Source: Chromatiales bacterium | GTDB lineage: Bacteria; Pseudomonadota; Gammaproteobacteria; JAGRGH01 | NCBI GenBank assembly: GCA_020445605.1 | Contig: JAGRGH010000037.1 | Coordinates: forward strand, 177,949 to 241,948 | Length of the DNA stretch: 64,000 nt | Direction: 5' to 3' | Shown here: in pieces, positions 16,027-64,000 of the stretch | Position numbering within the stretch: position 1 is the first letter of the stretch | Layout of the letters: the number at the start of each line of letters is the position of its first letter | Translations under genes and position numbers: made by a program | The notes under the pieces: generated by a model | The model's input: the letters and a program-made list of their open reading frames with translations, nothing else | Told to the model about the DNA's origin: nothing | Database searches by the model: none

Positions 16027-16032
16027 GCTGCG

Positions 16033-17322
16033 ATGCCGGAATTCAAACTCTGTCTCGACGGCATCGACCTCGCCACGGCGGACCAGGACAAACCGTGGAC
16101 GCTGGAACGCTACCGCGCGCGTGGTGGTTACGAGATGCTCAAACGTGTGCTTTCCGAACGCTGGGAGGCCGAGCGGATCATCGCCGAACTGAAGACCTCA
16201 TCGCTGCGTGGCCGCGGCGGGGCGGGCTTTCCGACCGGGCTCAAGTGGAGCTTCATCCGGCGCGACATTCCGGGCCAGCGCTATCTCGTCTGCAATTCCG
16301 ATGAGGGCGAACCCGGCACCTGCAAGGACCGTGAGATCCTGCGCTACAACCCGCATCTGCTGATCGAGGGCATGGCCATCGCCGGCTACACGCTGGGCGC
16401 AAGTGCCGGCTACAACTACATCCGTGGCGAGTTCATGGAACCGATCCGTCGGTTCGACGCGGCGCTGGACGAGGCGCGGGTGGCGGGGCTGCTCGGCAGC
16501 AACATTCTCGGCAGTGGCTTGGACTTCGATCTGTATTCACACGCCGGTGCCGGTGCGTACATCTGCGGGGAGGAAACCGCGCTGATCGAATCGCTCGAGG
16601 GCAAGAAGGGACAACCGCGTTTCAAGCCGCCGTTTCCCGCGAACTTCGGCCTCTATGGCCGCCCGACGGTCGTCAACAACACCGAGACCTATGCCTCCGT
16701 GCCGGCGATCCTGCGCAATGGCGGGCAGTGGTTTCTGGACATCGGCAAACCGAACAACGGCGGGCCGAAGCTGTTCTCCGTGTCCGGGCATGTCGAACGC
16801 CCGGGCAACTTCGAGGTGCCGCTCGGCACGGCGTTCAAGGAACTGCTCGCGATGGCGGGCGGAGTCTGGAAGGGGCGCAAGCTCAAGGCCGTGATCCCCG
16901 GCGGGTCTTCCGCGCCGGTTCTGCCCGGCGAGATCATGCTCGGCTGCAACATGGATTTCGATTCGCTCGCAAAGGCCGGTTCCATGCTCGGCTCCGGCGC
17001 GGTCATGGTCATGGATGAGAGCACGGACATGGTGCGGCTGCTCTATCGCATCGCGCATTTCTACTTCGAGGAATCCTGCGGACAGTGCACACCGTGCCGC
17101 GAAGGCACGGGCTGGATGGCACGCGTTGTGAAACGCATCCTCGATGGCAGGGGCCGCAGCGAGGATCTGGCCCTGCTCGACGACGTCTCGCGGCGTATTG
17201 AAGGCCGCACAATCTGTGCGCTCGGCGACGCGGCGGCCTGGCCGGTGCAGAGCTTCATCCGTCACTACCGGCACGAGTTCGAGTACTACATCGAACATGG
17301 CCGCAGTCTGCTGGCAGCCTGA
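16033..17322 (+). CDS. nuoF: NADH-quinone oxidoreductase subunit F
   Basis: 51-kDa subunit: [18 protein letters not shown] site, [13 protein letters not shown] 4Fe-4S motif. Confidence 0.95.
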
Positions 17323-17336
17323 GCGCGGATATCCGG

Positions 17337-19727
17337 ATGAGCGACGAGAAGATCACGATCGAAGTCGACGGGTGCACACTCGAGGCGCGTCCCGGACAGA
17401 TGCTCATCGAGGTCACCGATGCCGCCGGCATCGACGTGCCGCGCTTCTGCTATCACAAGAAGCTTTCCATCGCGGCAAACTGCCGCATGTGCCTGGTCGA
17501 CGTCGAAAAGGCGCCGAAACCGCTGCCGGCCTGTGCAACGCCCGTGACCGCCGGAATGATTGTGCGCACGCGCTCGAACCGCGCGCTGGAAGCGCAGAAG
17601 GGCACGATGGAATTCCTGCTGATCAATCACCCGCTGGACTGCCCGATCTGCGACCAGGGCGGCGAATGCGAGCTGCAGGATGTCGCAATGGGCTATGGGC
17701 GCGATGTGTCGCGCTTCGTGGAGCGCAAGCGTGTCGTCGCCGATCCGGATCTCGGCCCGTTGATCGCCACCGACATGACGCGCTGCATCCATTGCACGCG
17801 CTGTGTGCGCTTTGGCGAGGAGATCGCCGGCATTCGCGAACTCGGTGCGACCGGCCGCGGCGAACACACGCGTATCGGCACCTATGTCGAAAAGACCGTC
17901 GATTCGGAACTGTCCGGCAACGTCATCGATCTTTGCCCGGTCGGCGCGCTGACCGCAAAGCCGTTCCGCTTCCAGGCGCGCGCCTGGGAGATGCTGGCAC
18001 GCAATGCGATCGCCGCGCACGACGGCGTGGGTTCGAACCTGCAACTGCATGTGCGCCGCCAGCGTGTGCTGCGGGTCGCGCCGCGTGACAACGAGGCGAT
18101 CAACGAGACCTGGATCTCCGACCGCGACCGCTATTCCTACGAGGGTCTCGCGAGCCCCGATCGGTTGCTGATGCCGCAGCTGCGCGTCGACGGACGCTGG
18201 CGCGAGGCGGGCTGGGACGAGGCGCTGGGTTTTGCCGCTGAACGGCTTGATGCGGTGCGCAAGTCGGCTGGCGGACCGGCGATCGGCGCGCTGGCGCACC
18301 CGATCGCAACGGTCGAATCCCTGTTCCTGTTGCAAAAGCTCGCGCGCGGGCTCGGATCGAACAATGTCGATCACCGCCTGCGCCAGGCCGATTTCAGCGC
18401 GGATGCACAGGCGCCGGTTTTCCCGTGGCTCGGCCAGACCATGGCGGAGCTCGAGCAGTGCGATGCGGCGCTGGTGGTCGGTGCAAACCTGCGCAAGGAA
18501 CAGCCGCTGCTCGCGCATCGTCTGCGCAAGACCAAACTCCGCGGTGGCTGGTTCGGGGTCGTGAACCCGGCGCGCTATGCGGTATCGCATGAGCTGGATG
18601 CCGAGTGGATCGTCGCACCCCAGCACATGACGGGCGCGCTGGCATCCATTGCACGCGCCGTTGCGGACGCGACCGGAACGCGACCGGCGGCCGGGATCGC
18701 GGGCATCGTCGAGCGCGCGGACGTTGACGATTCGACGCGTTCCATTGCACGCGCGCTGATCGAGGCCGAACGCGCAACCCTGTTGCTTGGCGCGCTTGCT
18801 ACCGCGCATCCCGAATATGCCACGCTCGCCTCGCTTGCGGATTTCATTGCGCATCAGACGGACGCGCGTTTCGGTCAGCTGCCACCGGGCGGCAATGCCG
18901 CTGGCGCGTGGATTGCCGGCTGCGTACCGCATCGCGTCGAGGCGGGGGTGGCCGTGGACGGTCCGGCCGGACTGGCGGCGCGGTCGATGCTGGACGCCGG
19001 ACTCGAGGCCTACGTGCTGCTGCACGTCGAACCCGATCGCGACCTGCTCGACCCGCGCGCGGCGATGTCCGCGCTGGCCGCGGCCGACTGTGTGGTCGCG
19101 CTGACGGCATTCGATTCGCCCGCGCTGCGCGCCGTGGCGAGCGTCATGTTGCCCGTCGGTGTCTGGGTCGAGACGCCTGGTACTTGGGTCAACTGTGCCG
19201 GGCAGTGGCAGGGCGAGGCCGCGGCGATCAACCCGCCCGGCGAAGCACGTCCGGCCTGGAAGGTGCTGCGCGTACTCGGTGAGCGGCTCGGGGTCGAGGG
19301 CGTCGCGTTCGATCGCTCCGAGGACGTGCGTAATGCGCTGGTCAGCGCCACCGCGGACCTGGTTCCCGAGGTCGGACTGCGTGGCAGTGTGGCGAGCGAA
19401 ACACCGCCTGCGGCGCCGATGTGGCGGGTCGGCGAAGTGCCGATCTACGCCGTTGATGCCGTCGTGCGTCGTGCGGAGGCCCTGCAGGCGACGCGCGATG
19501 CCGTGACTTCGACCAGCGTCGGGCTGTCGCCGGCCGATGCCACGCGCCTGGGGCTCGATGATGGCGCGCACGTGGAGGTGCATCAGGGCAATGCGCTGAC
19601 GGTGCTGCCGGTGCGCATCGATGCGGCACTGCCGGAGGGCGCGGTGGCGATCCCGTCCGGTGTCGCGGGCAGCGAGATGCTCGGCGCACAGGTCGGACCG
19701 GTGACCATCAAGGCGATCCGTGAATGA
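17337..19727 (+). CDS. nuoG: NADH-quinone oxidoreductase subunit G
   Basis: 796 aa. N-terminal 2Fe-2S and 4Fe-4S cysteine clusters ([41 protein letters not shown]); molybdopterin-like C-terminal domain. Confidence 0.95.
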
Positions 19728-20782
19728 TTGACAAGATCGTCGAGTTCTGGAACTGGCTGCCGGTATGGACGCATACGGTCGTCTATGTCGTGATGATTCT
19801 CGTGCCGCTGATGCTGTCGGTTGCGTACCTGACCTTTGCCGAGCGCAAGATCATCGGTTACATGCAGGTGCGCATCGGGCCGAACCGCGTCGGTCCCCGT
19901 GGCTGGCTGCAACCGATTGCCGATGCGCTGAAGCTGATGGTCAAGGAGATCGTCATCCCGACCGGCGCAAACAAGTTTCTGTTCATCCTCGCGCCGGTCA
20001 TCGCGATGGCGCCGGCGCTGGCGGCCTGGGCGGTGATTCCGTTTGATGCCGGCATCGTGCTCGCGGACATCAACGCCGGACTGCTGTATCTGCTGGCGCT
20101 GACCTCGGTCGCGGTCTACGGCGTGATCATCGCCGGCTGGGCATCCAACTCGAAGTATGCGTTCCTTGGCGCGTTGCGTTCGGCGGCGCAGATCGTCTCG
20201 TACGAAATTGCGATGGGCTTTGCGCTGGTCGCGGTGCTGATCGCGGCCGGCAGTCTGAACATGGGCGAGATCGTTCGCGCGCAGCAGGGCAGCCTGCTGC
20301 ACTGGTATTGGCTGCCGCTGTTGCCGATCCTGGTCGTGTATTTCATCTCCGCGGTCGCCGAGACCAACCGCGCGCCGTTTGACGTCGCCGAGGGTGAATC
20401 CGAGATCGTCGCGGGCTTCCATGTCGAGTACTCCGGCATGGCCTTTGCGGTGTTCTTCCTTGCCGAGTACGCGAACATGATCCTCGTCTCGGCACTGAGC
20501 GCGGTCATGTTCTTCGGCGGCTGGCTGTCGCCGTTCGAGGGCATTCCGTATCTCGAGGACTGGTTCGCCTGGGTGCCGGGGCTGTTCTGGCTGGTCGGCA
20601 AGACCGCCGTCTTCCTGTTCCTGTTCCTTTGGTTCCGTGCAACCTTCCCGCGCTATCGCTACGACCAGATCATGCGACTGGGCTGGAAGGTTTTCATTCC
20701 GATCACGATTGTGTGGCTGATCGTGGTCGCGGTCATGGTGCTCGGTGAAATGCCCTGGTGGTTCGACCGGAGGGCGGCATGA
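19724..20782 (+). CDS. nuoH: NADH-quinone oxidoreductase subunit H
   Basis: Polytopic membrane protein with ND1 motifs ([12 protein letters not shown]...[25 protein letters not shown]). Confidence 0.95.
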
Positions 20783-27177: not shown

Positions 27178-28497
27178 GTGTCGGGCGCCCGCCCACCGCT
27201 GCCGGCTTCCTGCACCAATCTCTGGCTGAACCTCGGCGGCTTGGCCTGTGGCATGGCTGCGATGGTGTTCGTCGTGCGCATGCCGGAGCTCGACGTCGCC
27301 GTCGCCGCGATGATCGTCATGGCGGCGGCCGCCGGTTTCATTGCCACTGGCGAGGTGTTGCGTCTGCGCGGGCGCATGCTGCGCAACGCCGGTCTGGCCG
27401 CGGATCCGCCCAACGAGTTTGACCTCAACCGCGTCGGTCTCAAACTTCTGGGGCTGTATGGCACCTTCGTGTGCATCGGTTTCGTGTACTGGCTGCTGCA
27501 CGAGTACCACGGCTCGTTCTACGCGCCGTTCTGGCGCATGCTGCGCCTCGCGCTGCCGGCGCTCATCGTGCTGGCGGTGCCGTATTTCTTCTGGACCGAC
27601 CGGCGACAGAGCGCGCCGCATGACGGCTACTATCATGCGGGCCTTTTGTTCGCGGGGCGCTGGAAAGGGCTGAACCGCCAGGTGCTCAAACAGCACGCGC
27701 TCGGCTGGGGGGTGAAGGCGTTCTTCCTGCCGCTGATGCTGGTGTTCTTCACCACGGATATCCATTTCTATCGCGGCTTCGACTTCACCCACATCTGGGA
27801 CGAATTCCGGCTGTTCTACGATCTCAGCTACCGATTGCTGTTCAGCATGGACCTGCTGTTCGCAACCTTTGGATACGTCACCACACTGCGGCTGTTCGAC
27901 GCGCACATCCGCTCGACGCAGTCGACCCTGGTCGGCTGGCTGGCGGCGCTGATCTGCTATCAGCCGCTGTGGTCGTTCGTCTATCGCACGTATCTACCGT
28001 ATGAAGACGGCGCGCGCATGTGGGGTCCGTGGCTTGCGAACGGCGAGCCCTTCGTCTGGGGCGCGACCGCGCCGTACCTGTTCTGGGGCGGCGCGATCCT
28101 GCTGCTGCTGGCGATCTACGGACTGGCCACGGTCGCATTCGGCCTGCGGTTTTCAAACCTTACGCATCGCGGCATCATCACCGGCGGTCCGTATCGTTAC
28201 TCGAAGCATCCGGCGTACTGGTCGAAGAACCTCAGCTGGTGGTTGATCAGCGTTCCGTTCATCACGCTCGGCAGCGCCGCGGACGCGGTTCGGCACTGTC
28301 TGATGCTGTTGATGCTGAACGGCATCTACTGGCTGCGCGCCTACACCGAGGAGCGGCACCTGTCCGGCGATCCGGTGTATGTGGAGTACGCGCTGGCGAT
28401 GAACGAGCGCAGCTGGCTGGCGCCGCTGGTGCGGCGCTTTCCCGTGCTGAAATTTCTGAACTACCGTCCACCCGCGCCGGAGCGGGCCGGGCGTTGA
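27178..28497 (+). CDS. polytopic membrane protein with C-terminal ICMT/PEMT-like (class VI) methyltransferase domain
   Basis: 439 aa, many TM segments. C-terminus GGPYRYSKHPAYWSKNLSWW...LRAYTEERHLSGDPVYVEY matches the G-x-Y-x-x-x-RHP-x-Y and EE..L..Y signature of isoprenylcysteine carboxyl / phospholipid methyltransferases. 16 nt after nuoN. Start codon uncertain (GTG at 27178 or a downstream ATG). Confidence 0.5.
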   Translation: MSGARPPLPASCTNLWLNLGGLACGMAAMVFVVRMPELDVAVAAMIVMAAAAGFIATGEVLRLRGRMLRNAGLAADPPNEFDLNRVGLKLLGLYGTFVCIGFVYWLLHEYHGSFYAPFWRMLRLALPALIVLAVPYFFWTDRRQSAPHDGYYHAGLLFAGRWKGLNRQVLKQHALGWGVKAFFLPLMLVFFTTDIHFYRGFDFTHIWDEFRLFYDLSYRLLFSMDLLFATFGYVTTLRLFDAHIRSTQSTLVGWLAALICYQPLWSFVYRTYLPYEDGARMWGPWLANGEPFVWGATAPYLFWGGAILLLLAIYGLATVAFGLRFSNLTHRGIITGGPYRYSKHPAYWSKNLSWWLISVPFITLGSAADAVRHCLMLLMLNGIYWLRAYTEERHLSGDPVYVEYALAMNERSWLAPLVRRFPVLKFLNYRPPAPERAGR

Positions 28498-44291: not shown

Positions 44292-45014
44292 TTGCCGATG
44301 CGACTGACTCCCATCCTGACATTGACCATCGTGCTTGCGACGATGGTGAGCGGCTGTGCCGTTCGTGAGACCACGCTCCCCGATCATGAAATCGATGCGC
44401 CGCGCTGGTGGCGCGTGCGCTATCTCATGCACTGGCCAGAGGATTCCGGGCCGCTGCTATATCGCGACACCCTGATTGCCAATGAGATCGTTGCGCCGGT
44501 GCTCGAGACCGAGCGCGATGCGATCGTTGCGTGGCGCATGCATCGTCGCGCGCACCGCGAAACGGGCGGTCATGCGTTCAGCTTTTTGTATTACTCGAAT
44601 GCCGCGGACGGCCCGCGGATTGCGCGCGAATTGATGGAATCGCCACTGCTTGAGCGACTGCTCGCCGCGGGCGTGGTCGAGCGGGCGTGGTCGGAGTGGG
44701 GGCGGGCGATCGAGGATTCACCCATCGAGGCCACGAGCGACCCGAGCTGGTCGCCCGCGATGGCGCGCCACTGGCCGTGGTTCATCATGGGTGTGAGCGA
44801 GACCTGGCTGCGTCTGATCGCCGATTTCGCAGGCCCGCGTGCCACAAGTGCGGATGTGAATCTCGAAGCACTGGATGAACGGTACCTGAGGGTCAGCGAA
44901 GCGGTGACCGAACGCTGGGCCGGGGAGGGCGGCCATGCATTCCTGCATCACCTGAATGCCGTGTTCGGCTACGCGCCGGTGCAAACCGGCCCTGATGAGT
45001 GGCAGCGTTTCTGA
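44292..45014 (+). CDS. hypothetical lipoprotein
   Basis: Signal peptide with lipobox (LTIVLATMVSGCA); 240 aa. Only family-level resemblance (DUF2515-like?) and no firm family call. Confidence 0.45.
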   Translation: MPMRLTPILTLTIVLATMVSGCAVRETTLPDHEIDAPRWWRVRYLMHWPEDSGPLLYRDTLIANEIVAPVLETERDAIVAWRMHRRAHRETGGHAFSFLYYSNAADGPRIARELMESPLLERLLAAGVVERAWSEWGRAIEDSPIEATSDPSWSPAMARHWPWFIMGVSETWLRLIADFAGPRATSADVNLEALDERYLRVSEAVTERWAGEGGHAFLHHLNAVFGYAPVQTGPDEWQRF

Positions 45015-45207: not shown

Positions 45208-46791
45208 TTAGAGATCCCACCAGTCGAAATCGAAGTTCGTACCGAGCAGAGGGTCGATATAGATCGCGAGAAGCTGTCCGTACTCGACCAGCGCCGCGTC
45301 CGGATGATCCTCGTGGGCCTGTACGTCAAACATATACCAGCCGGCGCCGAGCACATCGTGCATGTCGGTGATGCCGGAGGATTCCTCGTCGGTCGTGATG
45401 AACTCGGCTGCGCCCTCGGAGAAGTAGCGGGGGTCGTGCGCCGCGACTTCGATCAGCTCCTGGGTCTCGATGCCGTAGAGCCAGATCTTGCCCAGACGCG
45501 CATTGCCGCCGACGTCTTCCTGCATGACGATTCGGCCGTAGATGTCGACCGTCAGGTTGTCGAGCATCTGGTGACCTTCGTCACCGTCGAGCAGCAGTTC
45601 AATCGTGCCTCCGTAACGGAACGGATCATCGACATCACGGAAGCGCAGTTGCCACAAGCGACTGGCGAGGTTGCTCGCGTCCCCGGCGCCACGGAAGTTG
45701 CCGGTCGTCACGAAATAGAAGTCGTTCTCGTGGCCGGGACGGGGATCCCATGCGCCGTCCTCGATGCGCTGAAAACGCGTAACGTCGCCCGCAATCGATT
45801 CGGCCTGAAGTTCGGCGCCAGTCTTGTTTGCGACCCATCCATGATCAACCAGGGTGAACTGCGCGCGCCGAACAAAGCCCATCTCGGCATTGCCGAGACC
45901 GAATTCGTTGCTTTCCTCTGGAATTGCGTCACCAGCCTGATACACGCGTACGCCACGCAGTATGCCGTTGAGGAGTCCCGCGCGCGCGACCACGTTGCCG
46001 GTCGTCTGCTTCCAGCCAGCGTAAACATAGAGCTCTGACGGCGCGTCGGTGCTGGCAGGGTCGGTCACACGATCCGCGTCGTCGAGTCCGATCACAAGTG
46101 TGCGCATGCGCGAGTGCGGGTGCGGCGCGATGTTTTCAAAAGCCATCTTCCCGAGCGTCGGCAGTTCATAGAGCTTGCCGGCTTCGGGGCCCGTCGCAAC
46201 GTATGCGAACCCGCGGCCGTGGTCGTCGGAGAACGGCGGACGGGTTTCCTCTCCGGTGAGAAAGATTCGATCTGCGGTACCGTAGGTTTCGCCGTTTTCA
46301 AAAATGAACGCCTGTGGTGAAGCGAGGGTGGCCGAACAGAACCGGTTGAAAGCGTCGGTTCCGCTGACAAACCACTGGCTGTCGGTGTCCCAGGTATTGA
46401 CGTCGGTGCCGCTTGCGACCGCATCGCGACCACTGAGCACCTCGAGGTTTGTATTGCGGATCTTCCAGCGCGACAGGAACGAGCCGGTTGAACCATGTGC
46501 ACGCACGGTGCCGGCCTCCGGCCCAAACTCGTGATTCAGGATAAGGTCGAACGTGCCGTCGCCGTTGTTGATGCCACCCAGACCATCGGGGATTCCAGCC
46601 ATTGTGTAGCCGCCGATTGTATCGCCGACGGTCAACACAGAGATCACGGCCACGCGGTCGCCGAGCAGCGGGTTTGCCTTCATGTACGGTTCGGCAGCGG
46701 TGCTTGGCCCGATATTGGCTGCACTGACCGCGGTCGAGGCTACGCCGATCGCCATCGCGATCGCGGAGCGACATACGCTATGAATTTTCAT
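45208..46791 (-). CDS. secreted hypothetical protein (possible beta-propeller / PhoX-like fold)
   Basis: Signal peptide MKIHSVCRSAIAMAIGVASTAVSAANI with an SD GGTGA 7 nt upstream of the ATG at 46791. Gly/Asp-rich repeats (FQRIEDGAWDPR, YFVTTG) are compatible with DUF839/PhoX-like propeller proteins, but the family assignment is not secure. Confidence 0.5.
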   Translation of the reverse strand: MKIHSVCRSAIAMAIGVASTAVSAANIGPSTAAEPYMKANPLLGDRVAVISVLTVGDTIGGYTMAGIPDGLGGINNGDGTFDLILNHEFGPEAGTVRAHGSTGSFLSRWKIRNTNLEVLSGRDAVASGTDVNTWDTDSQWFVSGTDAFNRFCSATLASPQAFIFENGETYGTADRIFLTGEETRPPFSDDHGRGFAYVATGPEAGKLYELPTLGKMAFENIAPHPHSRMRTLVIGLDDADRVTDPASTDAPSELYVYAGWKQTTGNVVARAGLLNGILRGVRVYQAGDAIPEESNEFGLGNAEMGFVRRAQFTLVDHGWVANKTGAELQAESIAGDVTRFQRIEDGAWDPRPGHENDFYFVTTGNFRGAGDASNLASRLWQLRFRDVDDPFRYGGTIELLLDGDEGHQMLDNLTVDIYGRIVMQEDVGGNARLGKIWLYGIETQELIEVAAHDPRYFSEGAAEFITTDEESSGITDMHDVLGAGWYMFDVQAHEDHPDAALVEYGQLLAIYIDPLLGTNFDFDWWDL

Positions 46792-47003
46792 GCATTCACC
46801 TTGCATTGCCAGCAGATTGATGTTTTCCCGGCATCAGGTCCGGGGCGGCAAAGCTTGCCGGCGCGAGGTGACGCGTCGTTGACGCGCGATTTACGAATAC
46901 ATCATTGTTTTGCTGCGCTACGGTTGCGGGTGAAATATCGCGGACATGCCGATGAAACATCGGCATCTCAATTGGCGGCGTTCGGTCGCCGGTCTGCGAT
47001 CGG

Positions 47004-52402: not shown

Positions 52403-53275
52403 TTGGACCCCAACATGGCCAACTCGCCGCATATTTACGAAGTCACCGAAGCCACGTTCGACGCCGAGGTGATCGCCCGATCGCACGAAGTGCCCGTGCT
52501 CGTGGACTTCTGGGCCGACTGGTGTGCGCCCTGCCGCATGCTCATGCCAGTGCTCCAGGCAGTCGTGGACTCGCACGCCGGCCAGGTCGTACTCGCGAAG
52601 GTCGATACCGACAAGGAACAGCGCCTCGCCGGCACGCACCGCGTGCGCGGCCTGCCGACCGTGCGGCTCTACAAGGACGGCAAGGTCGTCGAGGAGTTCA
52701 CCGGCGCGCAGCCGGAATCCGTCGTGCGTGCCATGGTCGAGCGTCATCTGGCGCGACCGGGCGATCCGCTGCGCCACGAGGCGCGCTCCGCGCTCGCCGC
52801 CGGCAACGCAGAACACGCCGTGCAGTATCTGACCGAGGCCCTGTCGCTGGACCCGGACAACGGCGAAATCCAGGTCGAACTCGCCGAAGCGCTGGCCCAG
52901 CAGGGCGACCTGGATGCCGCGCAGGAACGACTGGATGCATTGCCGCTACAGATTGCCGAGACCGAACCCGCGCGCCGACTGCGTGCGACGCTGATGTTCG
53001 CGCGCGCCGCCGGCACCGGCGGCGATGCGGACATCGCGGCAATGCTTGCGGCCGATCCGAACGACAGCGAGGCGCTGTACCGCCGCGCGGCGCAATCGGT
53101 GGTGCGCGGCGAATACCCGGAAGCCCTCGAAGACCTGCTCAGCGTGCTGCGCAACGATCGCGGCTTTCGCGATGGCGCCGCGCGTGAAGGCATGCTCGCC
53201 GTGTTCGAGATTCTCGGCCCGCAACATGAACTCGCCGCCCAGTTCCGCCGCCGGATGGCCGCGGCACTGAACTGA
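52403..53275 (+). CDS. thioredoxin-TPR fusion protein (YbbN/CnoX-like co-chaperone)
   Basis: N-terminal thioredoxin fold with an intact WCAPC active site. C-terminal TPR-like helical repeats resembling E. coli YbbN. Confidence 0.8.
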   Translation: MDPNMANSPHIYEVTEATFDAEVIARSHEVPVLVDFWADWCAPCRMLMPVLQAVVDSHAGQVVLAKVDTDKEQRLAGTHRVRGLPTVRLYKDGKVVEEFTGAQPESVVRAMVERHLARPGDPLRHEARSALAAGNAEHAVQYLTEALSLDPDNGEIQVELAEALAQQGDLDAAQERLDALPLQIAETEPARRLRATLMFARAAGTGGDADIAAMLAADPNDSEALYRRAAQSVVRGEYPEALEDLLSVLRNDRGFRDGAAREGMLAVFEILGPQHELAAQFRRRMAAALN

Positions 53276-53278
53276 GCA

Positions 53279-53300
53279 AGCGGCCGCTTTTGTGACACAA
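53279..53300 (+). terminator. candidate intrinsic terminator after the thioredoxin-TPR gene
   Basis: AAGCGGC/GCCGCTT hairpin followed by TTTGTG. Confidence 0.4.
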
Positions 53301-53395
53301 CCAACCCGGAGACTGCCGTGCGCGGATGGCCGAGGTTGGGAAGCAGGTTCGTGTCGCTGGCTGTTGGACGAGCCCGAAAACAAGGCAGGTAACCA

Positions 53396-54199
53396 ATGCT
53401 CGCGACCATCCGCTACTACTATTCAAGGTTTGGAATCCCCGGCGTGTGGTCGGCCACCAAATTGAAGCTCGGCGGTTCGGATCATCTCATCGAGGTCAGA
53501 AAGCGCGGGGTCAAGGCGCCGTTTTTTCTCCGACTGCGAACCAGTGACCTGCCGACCTTCGAGCAGATTTTTGTCCGCCAGGAGTACGACTTTCTTGCCG
53601 GGTCCCCGCCGAAGGTGATCGTGGATGCAGGCGCAAACATCGGGCTCGCGTCGACCTGTTTTGCAAACAGGTTTCCACTTGCAAAGATCATCGCGATCGA
53701 GCCGGAAGACAGCAATTTCAGATTGCTGGAACGCAACGTCTCGCCTTATCCGAATGTGGTTCCCGTTCAGGCGGCATTGTGGAACTCCAATGGCGAGATC
53801 AGCCTGGTTGACCCGGGATATGGCAAATGGGGGTACATGACGAGCGATGATGAAGCTGCCCAGAGGAGCGTCAATCAGGTTTGTCATCCGGTGGCGGCCA
53901 TGACGGTGGACCGGGTGATGCGCGACTTTGGCCTGGACAGGATCGATATCCTCAAAATGGATATCGAGGGCGCCGAGCGGGAGGTGTTCGCCGGTTCTTC
54001 GTCCTGGATTGAAAGCGTCGAGTCAATCATTGTTGAACTGCACGAGCGGTTGAAACCCGGCTGTAATCGAAGTTTCTACAACGGTACCAACGGATTCGAC
54101 TCGGAGTGGAGGCAAGGGGAAAGGATCTATCTTTCAAGACGCGGGGTCATCCGTCCGGGCCCCGGCGCAGGTCGGACCAGAAGGGCTGCCGTCGCATAG
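53396..54199 (+). CDS. FkbM-family SAM-dependent methyltransferase
   Basis: VIVDAGANIGLASTCFANRFP...IIAIEPEDSNFRLLERN...IDILKMDIEGAEREVF (Methyltransf_21/FkbM signature). GC ~56%, well below the flanks. Confidence 0.85.
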   Translation: MLATIRYYYSRFGIPGVWSATKLKLGGSDHLIEVRKRGVKAPFFLRLRTSDLPTFEQIFVRQEYDFLAGSPPKVIVDAGANIGLASTCFANRFPLAKIIAIEPEDSNFRLLERNVSPYPNVVPVQAALWNSNGEISLVDPGYGKWGYMTSDDEAAQRSVNQVCHPVAAMTVDRVMRDFGLDRIDILKMDIEGAEREVFAGSSSWIESVESIIVELHERLKPGCNRSFYNGTNGFDSEWRQGERIYLSRRGVIRPGPGAGRTRRAAVA

Positions 54200-54381
54200 G
54201 GTTCCGGCGTTCGGCCGACTCACCGGTTGCGCTATGCGGCGCTTCAGTGCTGCGGTCGTGGCGGTTTGCGTCGAAACAAGATGCCACAGGCAGGAACGGA
54301 ATTCCCTGCGCGGTTTCCGGATTGCGCGGTCGGCACGTATGCTGTGCGGCACGTGATTCGCATCCTTCCGGTCGGCGAGCG

Positions 54382-55170
54382 ATGGGCATTCTCAGAAAAC
54401 TGGCCAGAATACGGAGGTATGGGCTGACTGGTGCGCCGATCAGGCAAGACCGTCTCATCGTATCCGCGGAGAAACGTCTGGTTGTCGGTTTCACGCCCAA
54501 GGCGGCCTGTACGGTCGCCAGCAAGCTGTTCTTTCATACGATCGGAAAGCTGGACGAAGCCCGGGATCAATCGGACTGGATCCATGATTACAGGGAGGTT
54601 TACTGTGAGAAAAACCCGGTCCGCTATGTCCACCTGGTGTCCAGGTCATTCCTGAAAATCAAGTTTGTTCGGAATCCATTCCACCGTGCGGTAAGCAGCT
54701 ACATCCATGCGATGAGGTACGGGTACGTGGGCGCGGAAATCGAAAGGTCGCTCCGTCTGGGGGATTTCCGGGATGCGTCGTTTCGGGACTTCGTCCGCTT
54801 TCTCACCATGGAGGACCTGCATCGTTCGAACGTCCACCACGATTACCAGAAACTACGGCTCGAAGGTGTCGCGTTTCACTTCGACCACATAGTCCGGGTG
54901 GAAAATATTCTGGAACGGCTCAGTCAGATCAAAGCAGCCGATGGACGCGGCCTGGACTGGAACGAATCGTTGCTGAGCAGTCGACATCACACCAAGAAGA
55001 AGTGCGGGGAACAGGTGGCGGCGTTCGACCTGCCCTTCAAATCGCTCGTTGAGACGGGCGCTGGCTTTCCGGATTACAGCCGGTTTTACGATCCGCAATT
55101 GCTGGATGCGGTATACGAATTGTATAAGGTCGATTTTGATGCGTACGGATACGCTCGCGGGAAGCTTTGA
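54382..55170 (+). CDS. carbohydrate-sulfotransferase-like protein (Sulfotransfer_2-type motif)
   Basis: 5'-PSB-like GFTPKAACTVASKLFF and 3'-PB-like KFVRNPFHRAVSSYIHAM mirror the VPKVACTNW / FVREPFERLVSAYR motifs of HNK-1/chondroitin-type sulfotransferases. GC ~54%. ATG at 54382 inside the longer ORF. Confidence 0.6.
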   Translation: MGILRKLARIRRYGLTGAPIRQDRLIVSAEKRLVVGFTPKAACTVASKLFFHTIGKLDEARDQSDWIHDYREVYCEKNPVRYVHLVSRSFLKIKFVRNPFHRAVSSYIHAMRYGYVGAEIERSLRLGDFRDASFRDFVRFLTMEDLHRSNVHHDYQKLRLEGVAFHFDHIVRVENILERLSQIKAADGRGLDWNESLLSSRHHTKKKCGEQVAAFDLPFKSLVETGAGFPDYSRFYDPQLLDAVYELYKVDFDAYGYARGKL

Positions 55171-55202
55171 ATCGTTCAGTCTTTGCCGGGACAGGTCGTT
55201 GG

Positions 55203-55364
55203 CAGGCGGTTGAAATTCTGATTTCAACGGCCTGATATCGCGCGACAGGGACGTCTCGCCCGAAAATCGAACACACAAGTGTTTGATTTTCGTGAGCAAC
55301 CGAAAACCGCGCTTTTCGGTTGCGATGTTGAAAAGGCCATGGATGGGCCGTTTTCAACAACCTG
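55203..55364. repeat. MITE-like palindromic repeat, copy 2 (inverted relative to copy 1)
   Basis: ~160 bp with terminal hairpins GTTGAAATTCTGATTTCAAC and GTTGAAAAGGCC..GGGCCGTTTTCAAC. Right TIR TTTTCAACAACCTG abuts the stop codon of the downstream minus-strand gene. Core is ~93% identical to the reverse complement of 10381..10471. Confidence 0.75.
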
Positions 55365-56066
55365 TTAGCGCATGCGCACGACGGCATATAGATCGTAGGG
55401 GTCGCGGAAGGTCCACATGCAGTCGGCAAACCCGGCGCGCGCGGCGATGGCCTCCCAGCTCGGGATGGATTCCGGGTGATCCTGATTCAGCACGTGGGCG
55501 CTGACGCGGCTCAACTGGTCCTCGCTCAGATCGGCCCACTGATCGCGAAAGCAGCGCACGCTGCGTTCGAGAAACTGTTCGCGGGTCTCGTCGTCGCGAC
55601 GGAACACGTCATAGACGAAGATCTCACCGTCGTCGGTCAGCTGGTCGTGCATCCACGCGAGCAGTTCGCGTTTCTCGTCGTTTTCCAGATGATGCATGGA
55701 ATAGCCGGCGACGATCAGGTGGTACGGCCGGTCGGCGTAGTCGGCCGACCGCTGCATGGTGTCGGCGTGTAGCTGGATGTCACGCACGCGGCCGTCCAGG
55801 TTCTTGCGGGCGAACTCCAGCGCCGGCGCGGACAGATCGATCCCGCGATAGTGCGCGATCTCGTTGCCTTCGAGCGCCTGGCTCAGCACGTAGGCATCGC
55901 CACAGCCGACCTCGAGCACGTTCATGTCCACATGCAGCAGGCCGCCGAGCGCCCGACGCATCTGGTCGGTGATCTCGTTGTGCAGCATGTAGTTGCCGGC
56001 AATGACCTGCTGGTAGAGCTGCCAGCCTTCGAAGAAGGACTGGATGTCTTTGTCGTCCTGGTTCAT
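55365..56066 (-). CDS. class I SAM-dependent methyltransferase
   Basis: Motif I VLEVGCGDAYVLSQAL, acidic motif II, ~233 aa. Co-oriented downstream of glgB-glgA. Confidence 0.75.
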   Translation of the reverse strand: MNQDDKDIQSFFEGWQLYQQVIAGNYMLHNEITDQMRRALGGLLHVDMNVLEVGCGDAYVLSQALEGNEIAHYRGIDLSAPALEFARKNLDGRVRDIQLHADTMQRSADYADRPYHLIVAGYSMHHLENDEKRELLAWMHDQLTDDGEIFVYDVFRRDDETREQFLERSVRCFRDQWADLSEDQLSRVSAHVLNQDHPESIPSWEAIAARAGFADCMWTFRDPYDLYAVVRMR

Positions 56067-56209: not shown

Positions 56210-57658
56210 TCAGGGACGTTGCAGGAGGTCTTGGTACAGGGCCGAATAGCGCTGGGCGCTGGCCCGCCAGCTGAAGTCGCGCTGCATGGCGTTGCGCTGC
56301 ATCTGGCGCCAGACGGACGGTTCGCGCCAGACGGCGATGGCCTGTCGGAGCGCGCCGGCCAGGTCTTTCTGCGTGGCCTCGCCGAATGAAAAGCCGGTGG
56401 CGGTTTCCAGGTTCGAACGCTTGACGTCGAGGCCGGTCACGGTGTCCGCAAGCCCGCCCGTGGCGCGCACGATCGGCAGCGTGCCGTAGCGCATGGAGTA
56501 CATCTGGTTCAGCCCGCAGGGTTCGTAGCGCGAGGGCATGACGAAGGCGTCCGCGCCCGCCTCAATGCGATGCGCGAGCTGTTCGTCGTAACCTAGGCGC
56601 ACGGCCACCGCGTCCGGAAAGCGCGTGGCGAGCGATGACAGGGTCTGTTCGAGTTCGGGATCGCCACTGCCGAGCACGGCGAGCTGTGCGCCCTGCTCGA
56701 TCAGCGCGGGCAGGGTCTGCACGAGCAGATCGATGCCTTTCTGGTAGGCGAGCCGGCTGACCACGCCGAACAGCGGCGCCTCCAGATACGGACGCAGGCC
56801 GAGCGCCTGTTGCAGCAGTTCCTTGTTGCGCTGTTTGTAGCCGAGCCGCGCGGCGCTGTATTTGCGCACGACGTGCGGATCGCCAGCAGGATCCCACACG
56901 CGCGTGTCGATGCCGTTGACGATGCCGGTCAGCGCGTCCGCGCGCTTGCGCAGCATTCCGTCCATGCCAAATCCAAAGTCAGCGGTCTGGATCTCTTCGG
57001 CATAGGTCGGGCTCACGGTCGTGATCGCGTCGCTGTAGACGATGCCGGCCTTCAGGAACGAGAAATGCCCGTAGAACTCCGCGCCATCCGGTGTGTAGAC
57101 CGACCACGGCAGCCCGAGCGTGTCGACACTTTGCGGTGCGAAATTGCCCTGGTAGCCGATGTTGTGGATGGAGAACACCGAGCGCACCCCGGCGACGGGT
57201 TTCAGCCGCAGCCATAGCGCGGCGGGGCCGGTCTGCCAGTCGTTCAGATGCAGGATCTGCGGCCGCCAGTCGCCGGGCAACCCGCCCACGCAGAGCATGG
57301 TCGCGACTTCCGAGAGCAGGCCGAACCGGATCGCGCTGTCGGCGTGCTCCTGACCCTGCTCGTTCAGGTACGGACCACCCGGTCGCTCGTACAGGGCGGG
57401 TGCGATCAGCGTGTACACCGGGACTTTCGTATCCGGCATGCGGTATTCGCCGATCTCCACCGGCCCGACGCGGGTTTGCAGCGTCGCGGTCGCGCGTGCG
57501 CGCCCGAGGGCCTTTGTGACCGCCGGATACGCTGGCAGCAGGATGCGGCAGTCGTGGCCGGTTTCGACCAGCGCCGCCGGCAGGGCGCCGGCGACATCGG
57601 CGAGACCGCCGGTCTTGACCAGCGGCTGCACCTCGGAGGCGACGAACAGGATGCGCAC
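56210..57658 (-). CDS. glgA: glycogen synthase (ADP-glucose type)
   Basis: MRILFVASEVQPLVKTGGLADVAGALPAAL... (GT5 KTGGL motif). Confidence 0.95.
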   Translation of the reverse strand: MRILFVASEVQPLVKTGGLADVAGALPAALVETGHDCRILLPAYPAVTKALGRARATATLQTRVGPVEIGEYRMPDTKVPVYTLIAPALYERPGGPYLNEQGQEHADSAIRFGLLSEVATMLCVGGLPGDWRPQILHLNDWQTGPAALWLRLKPVAGVRSVFSIHNIGYQGNFAPQSVDTLGLPWSVYTPDGAEFYGHFSFLKAGIVYSDAITTVSPTYAEEIQTADFGFGMDGMLRKRADALTGIVNGIDTRVWDPAGDPHVVRKYSAARLGYKQRNKELLQQALGLRPYLEAPLFGVVSRLAYQKGIDLLVQTLPALIEQGAQLAVLGSGDPELEQTLSSLATRFPDAVAVRLGYDEQLAHRIEAGADAFVMPSRYEPCGLNQMYSMRYGTLPIVRATGGLADTVTGLDVKRSNLETATGFSFGEATQKDLAGALRQAIAVWREPSVWRQMQRNAMQRDFSWRASAQRYSALYQDLLQRP

Positions 57659-57672
57659 GTCGGCCGGGTCGG

Positions 57673-59835
57673 TCAGTCCTGCACCAGGATCAGCCCGCCG
57701 AGCGGTGGCAGGTTCAGCCGGATGCTGAACGGCCGGTGCATCTCGGCGTGTTCACCGGCGATGAATTCCACGCCGGCCGGGTATTCGCTGCCGCCGTAAC
57801 AGGCGGCGTCGCTGTTCAGCGCGACACGGTAGCGCCCGGCACGCGGCACGCCGAGCGCGTAGTCGTTTCTCGGCACCGGCGTGAAATTCAGCACGACGAT
57901 GCACAGCGAATCGCCGGCACGACGCAGGAAGCTCAGCACCGACTGGCGCGCGTCGTCGCACTCCAGCCACTCGAAGCCCTGGGCCTCGAAGTCGTGCGCG
58001 TGCAGTGCGGTCAGGTCGCGGTACAGGTGGTTGAGATCGCGCACCAGTGACTGCACGCCGCGATGCGGCCCGCGTTCGAGCAGGTGCCACTCCAGCGCGG
58101 TTTCGGAATTCCATTCCAGCCCGTGCGCGAAATCGCTGCCCATGAACAGCAGCTTCTTGCCCGGATACGCCCACTGATAGGTGTAGAGCAGGCGCAGGTT
58201 CGCGAACCGTTGCCAGGTGTCGCCCGGCATCTTGTCCAGCATGGAACGTTTGCCGTGCACGACTTCATCGTGCGAGAGCGGCAGCACGAAGTTTTCCGTC
58301 CAGCTGTAGAGCATGCCGAAGGTCAGCCGGTGGTGATGCCAGGGACGGTGCACGGGATCGCGCTCGAGGTAATCGAGCGTGTCGTGCATCCAGCCCATGT
58401 TCCATTTCATGGAGAAGCCGAGCCCACCGTGATCGACCGGACGCGAGACCTGCGCCCAGGCCGTGGATTCTTCGGCGACGATCACCGCGCCCGGATGCTG
58501 GGCGTGGGCAACGCTGTTGAGCTGCCGGATGAACTCGATCGCGTCGAGGTTCTCGCGTCCGCCGTGTGGGTTCGGCAGCCATTCGCCCTCGCGTCGCGAG
58601 TAGTCGAGATACAGCATGGAGGCGACCGCATCCACGCGCAGGCCGTCGATGTGCATTTCGTCGAGCCAGTACAGCGCGCTGGAGAGCAGGAAATTGCGCA
58701 CCTCGTTGCGGCCGTAGTTGAAGATCAGCGTGCCCCAGTCGGGATGCTCACCGCGGCGCGGGTCGGCGTGTTCGTACAGCGCGCTGCCGTCGAAGCGCGC
58801 GAGCGCAAAGTCGTCGCGCGGGAAATGCGCCGGCGTCCAGTCCAGCAGCACGCCAATGCCGTGCTGGTGCAGGCGGTCGACGAAGGCGCGGAACTCGTCG
58901 GGCGTGCCGAAGCGCCGGGTCGGCGCGTAGTAGCCGGTCGTCTGGTAGCCCCAGGAGGCGTCGAACGGGTGTTCCATGACCGGCAGCAGTTCGACGTGGG
59001 TGTAGCCCATGTCCGCCACGTATCCGGCGAGCCGGTCGGCGAGTTCCAGGTAGTTCAGGAACTGGCCGTTGGCGTCGCGTTGCCATGAGCCCAGGTGCAC
59101 CTCGTAGACCGACATCGGCGCGTGGCGCCAGTCGCGCGCGGCGCGCCCGGCCATCCAGTCCTGGTCGGCCCATGCGTACCGCCCTTCGGCGGTGACCACG
59201 GATGCCGTGGCCGGGCGCAGTTCGAACGCGCGGCCGTAGGGATCGCTCTTCAGCCGCAGCGCGCCGTCGCGGGTGCGGATCTCGAATTTGTACAGGGTGC
59301 CGGCACTGACGCCCGGCACGAACAGCTCGAATACGCCGCTGGCGCCGCGCGAACGCATGGGGTGGCAGCGGCCGTCCCAGCGGTTGAAGTCGCCGACGAT
59401 GCTGACGCGCTCGGCGTTCGGCGACCACACCGCGAAGCGGGTGCCGGCGAAGCCGTCGACGGTCGCCTCGTGCGCGCCGAGGAACCGCCAGGCATGCCAG
59501 TGCTTGCCCTGGCCGAACAGGTGCAGATCGAATTCCGAGATCTGCGGCGGAAAGCAGTACGGATCATGGCGGCGGTGTTTGCCGCCGTCGTGGTCGCGCC
59601 AGACGATCTCGTAGCGCTCGGGAACACACCCGGCCGGGCCGGTCCACTCGAACAGTCCGGCGGGCTTGGCCTGCACCAGTTCGGGGCCGTCCGCGCCGAT
59701 CCGTGCACTGCTGGCGTGCGGCAGCAGGACGCGTACGGTCACATTCGCGCCGTGCGGGTGCCGGCCCAGCACCTCGAACGGGTCGTGGTGGCGGGCTTCA
59801 ACAATGCGATGTCGTGCGTCTTCGCTGGCGGCCAT
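57673..59835 (-). CDS. glgB: 1,4-alpha-glucan branching enzyme (GH13)
   Basis: GH13 catalytic regions ([28 protein letters not shown]) and N-terminal CBM48 region. ATG at 59835 inside the longer ORF. Confidence 0.95.
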
Positions 59836-59989
59836 TGCTCGATAGCATCGCGGGTTCGTACCCGCAGGGGATTGCGATAGGTCAAGCCTCGGCGAGTTAC
59901 GCCCGTGCATGGCTTGGCCGTGGGAGGGGCGATAGTATACTTACCGTCGTTCTCCGGCATCCCCGACCACCACCCCTCGCGAGCACTCC

Positions 59990-61258
59990 ATGGTTCAGGA
60001 AACCGGGCGGCGTTTTGTCAGCCGTCTGACACGTGAAACGCTGGCGCTGATTCTTGCCGGCGGGCAGGGCACCCGGCTGGCGGGGCTCACGCGCTGGCGC
60101 GCGAAGCCAGCCGTACCATTCGGCGGCAAGTTCCGCATCATCGATTTTCCGCTGTCGAACTGCATGAACTCCGGCATCCGCCGAATCGCGGTGCTGACGC
60201 AGTACAAGTCGCATTCGCTGATCGGCCATATCGTCAACGGCTGGTCATTTTTACGTGGCGAATTCGGCGAATTCGTTGAATTGTTGCCTGCGCAACAGCG
60301 CCTGAATCAGTCCTGGTATGCCGGTACGGCCGATGCGGTCTATCAGAATCTGGACATCATTCGTTCGCACGCGCCGGGTTATGTGCTGATCCTCGCTGGT
60401 GACCACATCTACAAGATGGACTATGGTCCGATGATCGCCGCGCACGTGGAGTCGGGCGCGGATCTCACGATCGGCTGCATCGAAGTGCCGATCGACCGGG
60501 CGAACCAGTTCGGCGTGATGTCGGTGGATTCCGACAACCGGATCATCGCATTCCAGGAAAAGCCCGCGGAGCCACCGTCCATGCCGGGGGACCCCACCCA
60601 GGCGCTGGCATCGATGGGCATCTATGTCTTCAATGCTCGCTTCCTCTACGAACAGCTGATCCGCGACGCCGATGAGCCGCGTTCCACGCATGATTTCGGC
60701 AAGGACGTCATTCCGCGGCTGATCGATCGTTACCGCGTGCTCGCGTTTCCGTTTCGCGATGCGAGCACCGGCGCGCGCGCCTACTGGCGTGACGTTGGCA
60801 CGGTGGATGCATTCTGGCAGGCGAACCTGGAACTGATTGGCGTGACGCCGGAGCTGAACCTGTATGACGATGACTGGCCGATCTGGACCTACCAGGCCCA
60901 GCTGCCGCCGGCGAAGTTCATCTTCGACGACGACAACCGGCGAGGCATGGCCGTGGATTCCATGGTCTCCGGCGGGTGCATCATCTCGGGCGCGTATCTG
61001 CGTCGCTCGCTCTTGTTCTCGCATGTGCGCGTGGAGGCCTCCAGCCGTGTGCTGGATTCCGTCGTGCTGCCCGATGCCATCATCGGCCAGAACTGCCGGA
61101 TTCAGCGCGCGGTCATCGACAAGGGCTGTTCCATCCCCGATGGCACGGTCATCGGCGAGGATCGTGCCGAGGACCGGCGCCGGTTCCATGTTTCAGAAGG
61201 CGGGGTTGTGCTCGTGACGCCGGAGATGCTCGGCGTCGAACTGCACCATGCGCGGTAG
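59990..61258 (+). CDS. glgC: glucose-1-phosphate adenylyltransferase
   Basis: [47 protein letters not shown], near-identical to the E. coli GlgC core. Confidence 0.95.
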
Positions 61259-62966
61259 CGAAGGCGCCGCGGCACGACTGAAGGTCGTGCTGTGCTGGCA
61301 CATGCACCAGCCGGTGTATCGCGACCCGGCGGGTCGCTGGCGCCAGCCGTGGACCTATCTGCACGCGATCAAGGACTACAGCGACATGGCGGCCTATCTG
61401 GAGGCCGAACCCGCCGCGCGCGCCGTCGTCAACTTCGCACCGGTCCTGCTTGAACAGATCGAGGCCTACGCGCGCGAACTGCGCGCGATGCTCGACGGCG
61501 GTGCGCCGGTCGGCGATCCACTGCTCGCGGCGCTCAGCGAGCACGCACTGCCCACCGACGCACGGCCACGCGCGGCCCTGATTCGAGCCGCGTTGCGCGC
61601 GAACGAACAGCGCGTGATCGGTCGTTTCAAGCCGTTTCACGAACTCGTTGCCCTGGCGCATGCGGCACTCGATCTTGAAGCGCCTGCATCCAACGCCTGC
61701 TACCTCAGCGATGCGTTCGTCCATGACCTCGTGGTCTGGTATCACCTCGCGTGGATGGGTGAGAGCGTGCGCCGGGCACATCCGCTGATCGGCGAGCTGG
61801 AGAAGACCGCGCGTGGATTCACCGTCGGTCAGCGTCGGGCACTCGCGGAACTGATTCACGAGGTGATCGCGGGCATCATCGCGCGCTATCGCGCGCTCGC
61901 TGATTCGGGGCGCGTGGAGCTGTCCGTTACGCCCTATGCGCATCCGATCGTGCCGTTGCTGCTGGATTTCGAAACCGCGCGCGAGTCCATGCCGACCGCG
62001 CCGTTGCCGGAAGGCGAATATCCCGGTGGGGAGGCACGTGCACGCCGACACATCGAACATGGAATCGGGGTGTTCGAACAGTATTTCGGGCATCGTCCGC
62101 AGGGCTGCTGGCCTTCGGAAGGCGCGATCGATTCCGGTACCGCGCGTCTGCTCGGCGAATACGGCTTCCGCTGGGCCGCGACCGGCGAAAGCGTGCTGAC
62201 GAACACACTTGGGGATGCACGCTCGAAGTATCGCGGCAAGAGCTGGCTGTATCGGCCGTGGCAGCCGGATGAAACTCCGCTGGCGATGTTCTTTCGCGAC
62301 GACGGGCTTTCCGACCGCATCGGCTTTCAGTACGCGAGCTGGCATGCGGACGATGCGGTTGCCAACCTCACGCACGCACTGGCCGACATTGCCGCGCATT
62401 GCAATGATCCATCCCGGCGCGTGGTGTCGATCATTCTCGATGGCGAGAATGCCTGGGAGTACTACCCGGAAAACGCGCGCTATTTCCTGCCGGCCCTGTA
62501 CAAGAGCCTCGGCGAACACCCGGCGCTGGAACTGACGACCTTCAGTTCCGCGCTGAAGACCCTCAGGACCGAAACCCTGCCCACACCGCTGGTGGCCGGC
62601 AGCTGGGTGCATGGCACGCTCGCGACCTGGATCGGCGCGTTCGACAAGAACCGCGGCTGGGATCTGCTGGTCGCGGCCAAGAAGGCCTTCGACGAGGCCT
62701 GCGAAAGTGGTCTGAAAGGCGACCGGCTGGCGGCAGCCGAACAGCAGCTCAGCGTGTGCGAGGGCTCGGACTGGTTCTGGTGGCTCGGAGACTACAATCC
62801 GGGCGAAGCGGTGAGTGATTTCGAGCGCCTGTATCGCGCGCAACTGCGCGAGCTGTACCGGCTGATCGGGGTCGAGCCGCCGGCGGCGCTCGATGCCGTG
62901 CTCTCGACCGGCACCGGCACGCCGGCGACCGGAGGCGTCATGCGAACGGGACAAGCGACCGCGTGA
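61248..62966 (+). CDS. glycoside hydrolase family 57 protein (alpha-glucan branching/amylase-like)
   Basis: [12 protein letters not shown] and a (beta/alpha)7 barrel-type sequence typical of GH57. Overlaps the glgC end by 11 nt and the malQ start by 4 nt. Confidence 0.8.
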
Positions 62967-64000
62967 ACGGCATTGGTACGCAGCGCCGTGCCGGCGTGCT
63001 GCTGCATCCGACTGCGCTGCCATCCGGGCGTCTCGACGGCGACGCAACGCGGTTCATCGACTGGCTCGGCGAGTGTGGCTTCGGCGTCTGGCAGATGCTG
63101 CCGCTGGGGCCACCGGTGGTCGGGCTCTCGCCATATTCATCCGCCTCTGCGTTCGCGGGGCATGCCGGCCTCGTGCCCGCCGAGTCAGCCGCACAGGCCA
63201 GTCATTCGGACATTCCGGTCGCCGATGTCTGGCTCGACGATTACGTTCTGTTTGCCACGCTCAAACAGCGCCTCGGCGGTGCGCCGTGGTGGCAGTGGCC
63301 GGAGCCACTGCGTGAACGCGAGCCGGGCGCGCTGGCACAGGCGCGCGAATCGCTCGCCGTGCAGATACAACAACTGAAATCCGAACAGGCGGAGTTCTTC
63401 GGGCACTTTGCGCGCTTGCGCGCACTCGCGCATGCTTCGAGCGTGTCCCTGTTTGGCGATCTGCCGCTGTTCGTCGCCGATGACAGCGCCGATGTCTGGG
63501 CCCATCCGCAGTGGTTCAAGCTGCATCGTGACGGGCCTGAACGTGGACGTCCGCGCGTGGTGGCGGGGGTGCCGCCGGATTATTTTTCCGCGACCGGGCA
63601 GCGCTGGGGCAATCCGATCTACGACTGGGACGCGCTCGCGCGCGATGGCTTCCGCTGGTGGCTGGATCGCGTGGCCGTGCAGCTTGCGCAGTTCGACCTG
63701 ATCCGGATCGATCATTTTCGCGGGCTCGCGGCGAGCTGGGAGATTCCCGCTGCCGATCCGGTGGCGACCGGCGGGACCTGGGTCGAGGTGCCGGGGGCGG
63801 CGCTGCTCGACGCAGTCAACGCCAGCCTTGGCGAGGTGCCGTTCGTGGCCGAGGACCTCGGCATCATCACGCCCGATGTCGAGCGCCTGCGTGAACGCCA
63901 CCAGTTGCCGGGTATGAAGATCCTGCAATTCGCCTTCGACAGTGACGATCTGAATCCGTATCTGCCGGCGAACCACGTCGAAAACTGCGTCGTCTACACC
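62963..64000 (+). CDS. malQ: 4-alpha-glucanotransferase (amylomaltase, GH77), 5' partial in window
   Basis: GTG start overlapping the GH57 stop (GTGA). RAGVLLHPTALPS...GFGVWQMLPLGP...SPYSSASAFAG...CVVYT(GTHDN expected just beyond the window). Runs off the window end. Confidence 0.85.
   Translation, partial: MNGIGTQRRAGVLLHPTALPSGRLDGDATRFIDWLGECGFGVWQMLPLGPPVVGLSPYSSASAFAGHAGLVPAESAAQASHSDIPVADVWLDDYVLFATLKQRLGGAPWWQWPEPLREREPGALAQARESLAVQIQQLKSEQAEFFGHFARLRALAHASSVSLFGDLPLFVADDSADVWAHPQWFKLHRDGPERGRPRVVAGVPPDYFSATGQRWGNPIYDWDALARDGFRWWLDRVAVQLAQFDLIRIDHFRGLAASWEIPAADPVATGGTWVEVPGAALLDAVNASLGEVPFVAEDLGIITPDVERLRERHQLPGMKILQFAFDSDDLNPYLPANHVENCVVYT

Follow-up and report, generated by a model that had tools for sequence, protein, structure and literature searches.

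The animal members of the Sulfotransfer_2 family (IPR005331), which include HNK-1ST/CHST10, the chondroitin/dermatan 4-O-sulfotransferases CHST11-14 and HS2ST, share a common alpha/beta fold, and the Golgi enzymes have a type II topology, in which an N-terminal transmembrane anchor and a stem precede a luminal catalytic domain. Among bacterial enzymes, NodH (Sulfotransfer_3, PF13469) and the mycobacterial Stf0 (1tex) belong to the same overall fold class and sulfate glycolipids or oligosaccharides with 3'-phosphoadenosine 5'-phosphosulfate (PAPS) as donor. Cytoplasmic PAPS sulfotransferases that tailor a polysaccharide have been described for synechan (xss) in Synechocystis (PMC8205485) and for capsules of Vibrio and Cobetia (PMC11641403, PMC11766843), and these loci contain glycosyltransferases, Wzx/Wzy or ATP-binding cassette (ABC) exporters and often cysDNC together with cysQ. 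In the present study, we analysed a sulfotransferase gene located at 54382..55170 on the + strand of a 64,000-nucleotide stretch (the window) of contig JAGRGH010000037.1 from a Chromatiales bacterium (assembly GCA_020445605.1). The gene is a genuine and intact bacterial member of Sulfotransfer_2. With modest confidence, we favour the reading that it encodes a soluble, cytoplasmic PAPS-dependent O-sulfotransferase, which was acquired with the neighbouring FkbM-family methyltransferase gene as a two-gene module and which tailors a surface glycan encoded elsewhere. The protein would then share the logic of the synechan, Vibrio and Cobetia systems, whereas none of the companion genes of those systems is found at the window locus.

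The gene has an ATG start and a TGA stop and encodes 262 amino acids without any transmembrane segment; the start and length are the same in the public gene call (P0001). A GTG at 54106 is mechanically possible as a longer start, and the 262-residue product is backed by the public call and by all homologues. The earlier note on this DNA, made from the letters alone, had proposed a Sulfotransfer_2-type enzyme, and the Pfam search agreed: the protein matched PF03567 with an E-value of 8.2e-15 and 56 bits (gathering score 22) over model positions 2-252 of 252. No second family was found beside it in Pfam at E<=1, no hidden Markov model of the NodH-type (Sulfotransfer_3) or Stf0-type families matched the protein, and NCBIfam contained no model matching it. 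An AlphaFold2 model built on nine homologues (mean pLDDT, the predicted local distance difference test, 81.8; pTM, the predicted template modelling score, 0.81) has the alpha/beta fold of sulfotransferases. Two segments that the note had picked out as resembling PAPS-binding motifs are placed by this model, together with the conservation described below, as the 5'-phosphosulfate-binding (5'-PSB) and 3'-phosphate-binding (3'-PB) elements. The first, GFTPKAACTVAS (54487..54522, + strand; residues 36-47), is a strand-loop-helix with a strand at 33-36, the TPKAAC loop, a helix at 43-53 and the conserved lysine K40. The second, KFVRNPFHRAVSSY (54661..54702, + strand; residues 94-107), is a strand-turn-helix with a strand at 91-96 and a helix at 99-113, and it carries R97 and the PxxRxxS pattern (P99, R102 and S105). 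A search of PDB chains with the single sequence gave nothing significant, only spurious matches to phycobilisome linkers. With a profile, the best PDB match was the 3'-PB helix of an Alicyclobacillus sulfotransferase, 3rnl, in which RNPVDRAFSAYMH aligns with the KFVRNPFHRAVSSY segment at an E-value of 0.053, below significance.

The note had also called the protein eukaryote-like, and this holds only at the level of family homology with the animal enzymes, which fall under the same full-length model. The 5'-PSB loop reads PKAACT where the animal consensus quoted in the note reads PKVACTNW, and the 3'-PB helix reads RNPFHRAVSS as against R(E/D)PFERLVSA. The relatives bearing names are all bacterial. 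The highest 19-residue hydropathy of the protein is 1.29, at the PSB strand, and the N-terminus is basic and helical. There is no hydrophobic segment; the protein is therefore soluble and cytoplasmic, unlike the Golgi enzymes with their anchor, stem and luminal catalytic domain. It agrees in this with bacterial relatives named by the NCBI annotation pipeline PGAP, such as Roseibacillus persicicus WP_411845340.1 and proteins of Bacillus thuringiensis plasmids, which belong to the same subfamily, are soluble and have about 230-280 amino acids.

Conservation was read from 109 members of the subfamily, whose identity with the window protein is 25-42%. Among these, P99, R102, F134, H152, Q156 and D251 are invariant, and K40, H68, R71, R97, S105, E161, S200 and H202 are at least 90% conserved; K40 is also invariant in a smaller alignment of nine sequences. 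All of P99, R102, H152, Q156 and D251 are common to the window protein and the PGAP-named relatives. The published definition of Sulfotransfer_2, a PSB lysine and a PB helix with PxxRxxS (PMC11625862), describes the protein in both parts. In the mechanism that we propose, the K40 loop would grip PAPS at its 5'-phosphosulfate, and R97, R102 and S105 would grip it at the 3'-phosphate. A conserved histidine would then deprotonate the acceptor hydroxyl for in-line sulfuryl transfer, with the invariant H152 and the nearly invariant H68 as candidates. H68 stands in a WIHDY context and at a distance from the PSB lysine that resemble those of the catalytic histidine of HS6ST. Both the use of PAPS as donor and the choice of the catalytic base are put forward here as proposals. 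That the protein is a sulfotransferase can be held with high confidence. The alternative is improbable in our view; here a transfer event would have brought the gene along in an inactive or decaying state, or the gene would code for a sulfotransferase-like P-loop fold with a different nucleotide and chemistry. The PAPS-site residues are conserved as listed above, and the sulfotransferase sequence was identical on all 24 contigs read, from several samples.

The composition of the locus bears on how the gene arrived. Sliding-window GC content is 0.53-0.60 across about 53200-55400, as against 0.64-0.72 in the flanks, and this low-GC islet of about 2.2 kb (53200..55400, approximate bounds) houses two genes only. 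One is the sulfotransferase gene, and the other, upstream of it, is that of an FkbM-family S-adenosylmethionine (SAM)-dependent methyltransferase at 53396..54199 on the + strand (267 amino acids; PF05050, 67.5 bits; TIGR01444, 99.5 bits). GC content at third codon positions (GC3) is 0.694 in the FkbM gene and 0.673 in the sulfotransferase gene, compared with 0.82-0.86 in the genes on either side, namely that of a thioredoxin-tetratricopeptide repeat (TPR) protein and, beyond the islet, those of a class I methyltransferase, GlgA and GlgB. This drop in GC and GC3 makes the two genes a compositionally foreign islet, and as judged from their sequence they were most likely acquired together by horizontal transfer. 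No direct or inverted repeats, insertion sequence (IS) element or integrase was found at the islet edges, where tRNA genes were not scanned for. A scan of metagenome contigs with the class I methyltransferase gave no match, and hence no close relative without the islet.

The FkbM protein is a probable functional partner of the sulfotransferase, and the two would cooperate by sulfating and O-methylating a sugar residue of a cell-surface polysaccharide, O-antigen or glycolipid, while other parts of the genome would provide PAPS and the backbone genes of the decorated glycan. The FkbM group is of about 257 amino acids and gave 1,669 matches at 55-65% identity in Gammaproteobacteria, Verrucomicrobiota and Planctomycetes. 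Three contexts of its relatives were read; in two of them, those of the relatives at 65% and 61% identity, the gene lies in a cluster with Wzx, glycosyltransferase and epimerase genes and a weak Sulfotransfer_3 protein, and the third was uninformative. Such loci therefore combine methylation with sulfation, although the sulfotransferase in them is a different one. The weak Sulfotransfer_3 proteins were considered as homologues of the window sulfotransferase and set aside, as hhalign showed no relationship. As a separate observation, the FkbM group is unusually well conserved, and the window copy has a C-terminal extension of 10-15 residues into the GC-richer spacer.

Whether the acceptor is a glycan was judged from the gene contexts of the homologues, and we give this part of our reading about an even chance. 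Glycosyltransferases of families GT2 or GT4 lie within 6 kb at 23 of the 42 homologue loci of a jackhmmer screen, a count for which the background rate near random genes was not controlled. The commonest families among the 83 immediate neighbours of 23 homologue loci were GT2 (8 proteins) and GT1/GT4 (4). A Planctomycetota locus carries a 1,688-residue GT2-GT2-GT1 protein, AsnB, the sulfotransferase and an ABC ATPase; a gammaproteobacterial one has a Sulfotransfer_3 gene, the sulfotransferase and a double GT2; and in Pseudohoeflea there is a GT61/GT2 fusion. Many PGAP-named relatives are situated inside clusters for glycosyltransferases, extracellular polysaccharide (EPS) or O-polysaccharide, whereas the window gene stands alone with FkbM between housekeeping genes. 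The arrangement of a sulfotransferase amid glycosyltransferase, exporter and PAPS-synthesis genes was seen at loci of relatives such as L069, from Roseibacillus persicicus, and L016, and not here. Support for the glycan reading comes from the loci rich in GT2 and GT4, from the Roseibacillus EPS cluster and from the FkbM relatives in Wzx clusters. In its own right, the Roseibacillus persicicus cluster (1-20000 of the locus) holds five sulfotransferases, four Sulfotransfer_1 and one Sulfotransfer_2. It also has GT2, GT4s, an epimerase, the exosortase genes EpsH/EpsI, Wzy_C and a priming transferase. The organism is a cultured verrucomicrobium, and the cluster is a strong candidate for the synthesis of an EPS with heavy sulfation.

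Several observations weigh against this surface-glycan proposal. Besides the uncontrolled background of the glycosyltransferase count, the nearest homologues, which are Bacteroidota proteins of 35-42% identity, have no glycosyltransferase neighbours, and neither do the copies of Dongiaceae and Bacillus; the family is therefore not uniformly glycan-linked. FkbM was not found beside other sulfotransferase homologues, save for distant FkbM matches about 8-9 kb off in locus L049. No glycosyltransferase besides GlgA, no Wzx or Wzy and no ABC exporter was found within 10 kb or in the window. The note had stated that PAPS supply genes are not in the window, and this was correct, as cysD, cysN, cysC, cysQ and other PAPS-synthesis genes are absent among its annotated genes. 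Furthermore, we found no demonstrated activity for any member of this sulfotransferase subfamily.

Some of the same contexts would suit a PAPS-dependent sulfotransferase with a non-glycan acceptor (a lipid or hydroxy fatty acid, a small metabolite or a peptide), with FkbM acting on the same or on an unrelated molecule, a serious rival that we nevertheless consider less likely. At 19 of the 42 homologue loci there is no glycosyltransferase within 6 kb, and the window gene likewise has no glycan genes nearby. The closest relatives stand beside peptidase-like, ABC-2 membrane, squalene-hopene-cyclase-like and Kelch/type IX secretion system (T9SS) proteins, the B. thuringiensis plasmid copies flank a TauE/SafE exporter gene without glycan genes, and there are documented bacterial sulfotransferases that have sterols or hydroxy fatty acids as substrates (PMC13449962). 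However, carbohydrate sulfotransferases dominate the Sulfotransfer_2 seed set (PMC11625862), glycosyltransferases abound at half of the homologue loci, with one clear EPS cluster among them, and the closest FkbM relatives with informative context belong to polysaccharide clusters.

The impression that bacterial members of this family are uncommon, which the note had given, did not survive. A word-indexed search returned only nine relatives, the nearest 42% identical, and this small yield probably explains any impression of rarity. An exhaustive profile search gave 425 clusters (at 50% identity) at E<=1e-30, 2,334 at E<=1e-10 and 11,281 at E<=1e-3. The strict peptide VRNPFxR[AV]VS occurs at 46 loci in 46 GTDB species, with one genome scanned per GTDB species; these loci are from Bacteroidota, Planctomycetota, Halieaceae, Dongiaceae, Caulobacterales, cyanobacteria, Chloroflexia and Bacillus. 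Homologues are also carried on 43 plasmids of Bacillus and Priestia, with the annotation "sulfotransferase family 2 domain-containing protein", and a 2026 survey (PMC13449962) put the number of Sulfotransfer_2 entries from five bacterial phyla at 5,051, with 3,866 coming from Proteobacteria. The profile-search, species-scan, plasmid and survey counts therefore show the claim of bacterial scarcity to be wrong. The protein itself has an identical entry in NCBI nr, from a Chromatiales metagenome-assembled genome, under that same standard PGAP name. Fusions with a second sulfotransferase domain or with TPR repeats also occur among the relatives. A rhizobial symbiotic-plasmid sulfotransferase such as NoeE was considered as a relative and rejected, as the plasmid tblastn gave Bacillus and Priestia plasmids only. 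On the B. thuringiensis CT-43 plasmid pCT281 (locus L068, 6238-8720), two sulfotransferase family 2 genes flank a gene of the TauE/SafE sulfite-exporter family; the pair adjoins tyrosine recombinases and IS231C and is met again on numerous plasmids of B. thuringiensis and B. cereus.

The gene is thus an ordinary addition to a large family that public databases already annotate, correctly so for this protein, and no sign of a new pathway was seen in the window. Very few of the bacterial enzymes that sulfate polysaccharides have been characterised, and there is biotechnological value in sulfated glycans; a compact, soluble Sulfotransfer_2 protein is therefore a reasonable candidate for enzymology. 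The useful outcome of the present analysis is that the claims of rarity and of a link to glucan metabolism are corrected, and that the gene is placed in what is most likely a horizontally acquired two-gene tailoring module.

The link to glucan metabolism had been suggested by the glycogen genes nearby. These are a class I SAM methyltransferase gene (55365-56066, - strand; 233 amino acids), glgA (56210-57658, - strand) and glgB (57673-59910, - strand), all of native composition, and glgC (59990-61258, + strand), which is followed by GH57, GH77 and ROK protein genes. The islet lies between the end of the glgB-glgA-methyltransferase unit and the thioredoxin-TPR gene (52403-53275, + strand), which has native GC3, and the sulfotransferase gene is convergent to that unit. 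Neither co-orientation nor shared composition (GC3 0.67 vs 0.85) nor conserved linkage with glgA, glgB and glgC was found. A tblastn search with GlgA over all fetched homologue loci hit only contigs of this same organism, with no glgA within 10 kb elsewhere. Since the strands are convergent, the sulfotransferase composition is foreign and the adjacency is confined to this organism, the proposed link to glucan metabolism is unsupported, and the glycogen genes look like coincidental bystanders.

The convergent spacer (55171-55364, GC 0.515) houses three consecutive hairpins with 14-nucleotide arms (55203-55234, 55261-55292 and 55296-55323), each an inverted repeat with 93% complementarity. They are probable transcription stops that would part the sulfotransferase gene from the opposing methyltransferase gene. 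A scan for consensus terminators did not flag the spacer hairpins, and the terminator and promoter scan was uninformative. A fourth hairpin is possible in the spacer at about 55331-55356.

In a glucan version of the locus, the sulfotransferase, with one or both methyltransferases, would modify the alpha-glucan made by GlgA and GlgB into a sulfated and/or methylated intracellular glucan, for which we see only the slightest probability. In its favour, GlgA, encoded at a distance of 1 kb, is the sole glycosyltransferase within 10 kb, the class I methyltransferase gene comes after glgA in the same orientation, and both the sulfotransferase and glycogen are cytoplasmic. However, GlgA is encoded on the opposite strand, beyond the hairpin-rich spacer; the foreign sulfotransferase gene contrasts with the native glg and class I methyltransferase genes; other homologue loci have no glgA within 10 kb; and the genes around relatives of the class I methyltransferase (58% and 42% identity) are unrelated to these. 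In a related and very improbable case, the FkbM-sulfotransferase pair, perhaps with the class I methyltransferase, would decorate the GlgA/GlgB alpha-glucan with sulfate and/or O-methyl groups, which would give a gammaproteobacterium a modified intracellular polysaccharide with the polymethylated glucans of mycobacteria as a loose analogue. In a weaker version of this case, the subfamily with invariant H152, Q156 and D251 would have an acceptor class new for Sulfotransfer_2.

The remaining genes of the window are of housekeeping type and include carAB, greA, ftsJ, ftsH, folP, glmM, tpiA, secG and nuoA-N, as well as purU-like, dapA, purL, a GGDEF-EAL protein, ispG and cytochromes c. Three open reading frames, at 27178-28497 (+), 45208-46806 (-) and 44292-45014 (+), have coding-like GC3 and no Pfam family at E<=1e-5. 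The class I methyltransferase gene begins 143 nucleotides downstream of glgA on the same strand and in native composition, and it may be co-transcribed with glgB-glgA, a linkage that is not conserved. The contig ena:ERZ27309265:k141_774672 equals the window up to 58650 inside glgB (14269 in locus L002) and then diverges; beyond that point it has glycogen phosphorylase and ABC-transporter genes, not glgC-GH57-malQ. A chimeric assembly, strain variation or another glgB paralogue could account for the difference. In the glycogen locus of the window (56210-64000), glgA and glgC are accompanied by genes for a GH77 amylomaltase, a ROK-family protein, a GlgB of glycoside hydrolase family 13 (GH13) and a member of GH57; with the last two, a pair of branching-type enzymes may coexist there.
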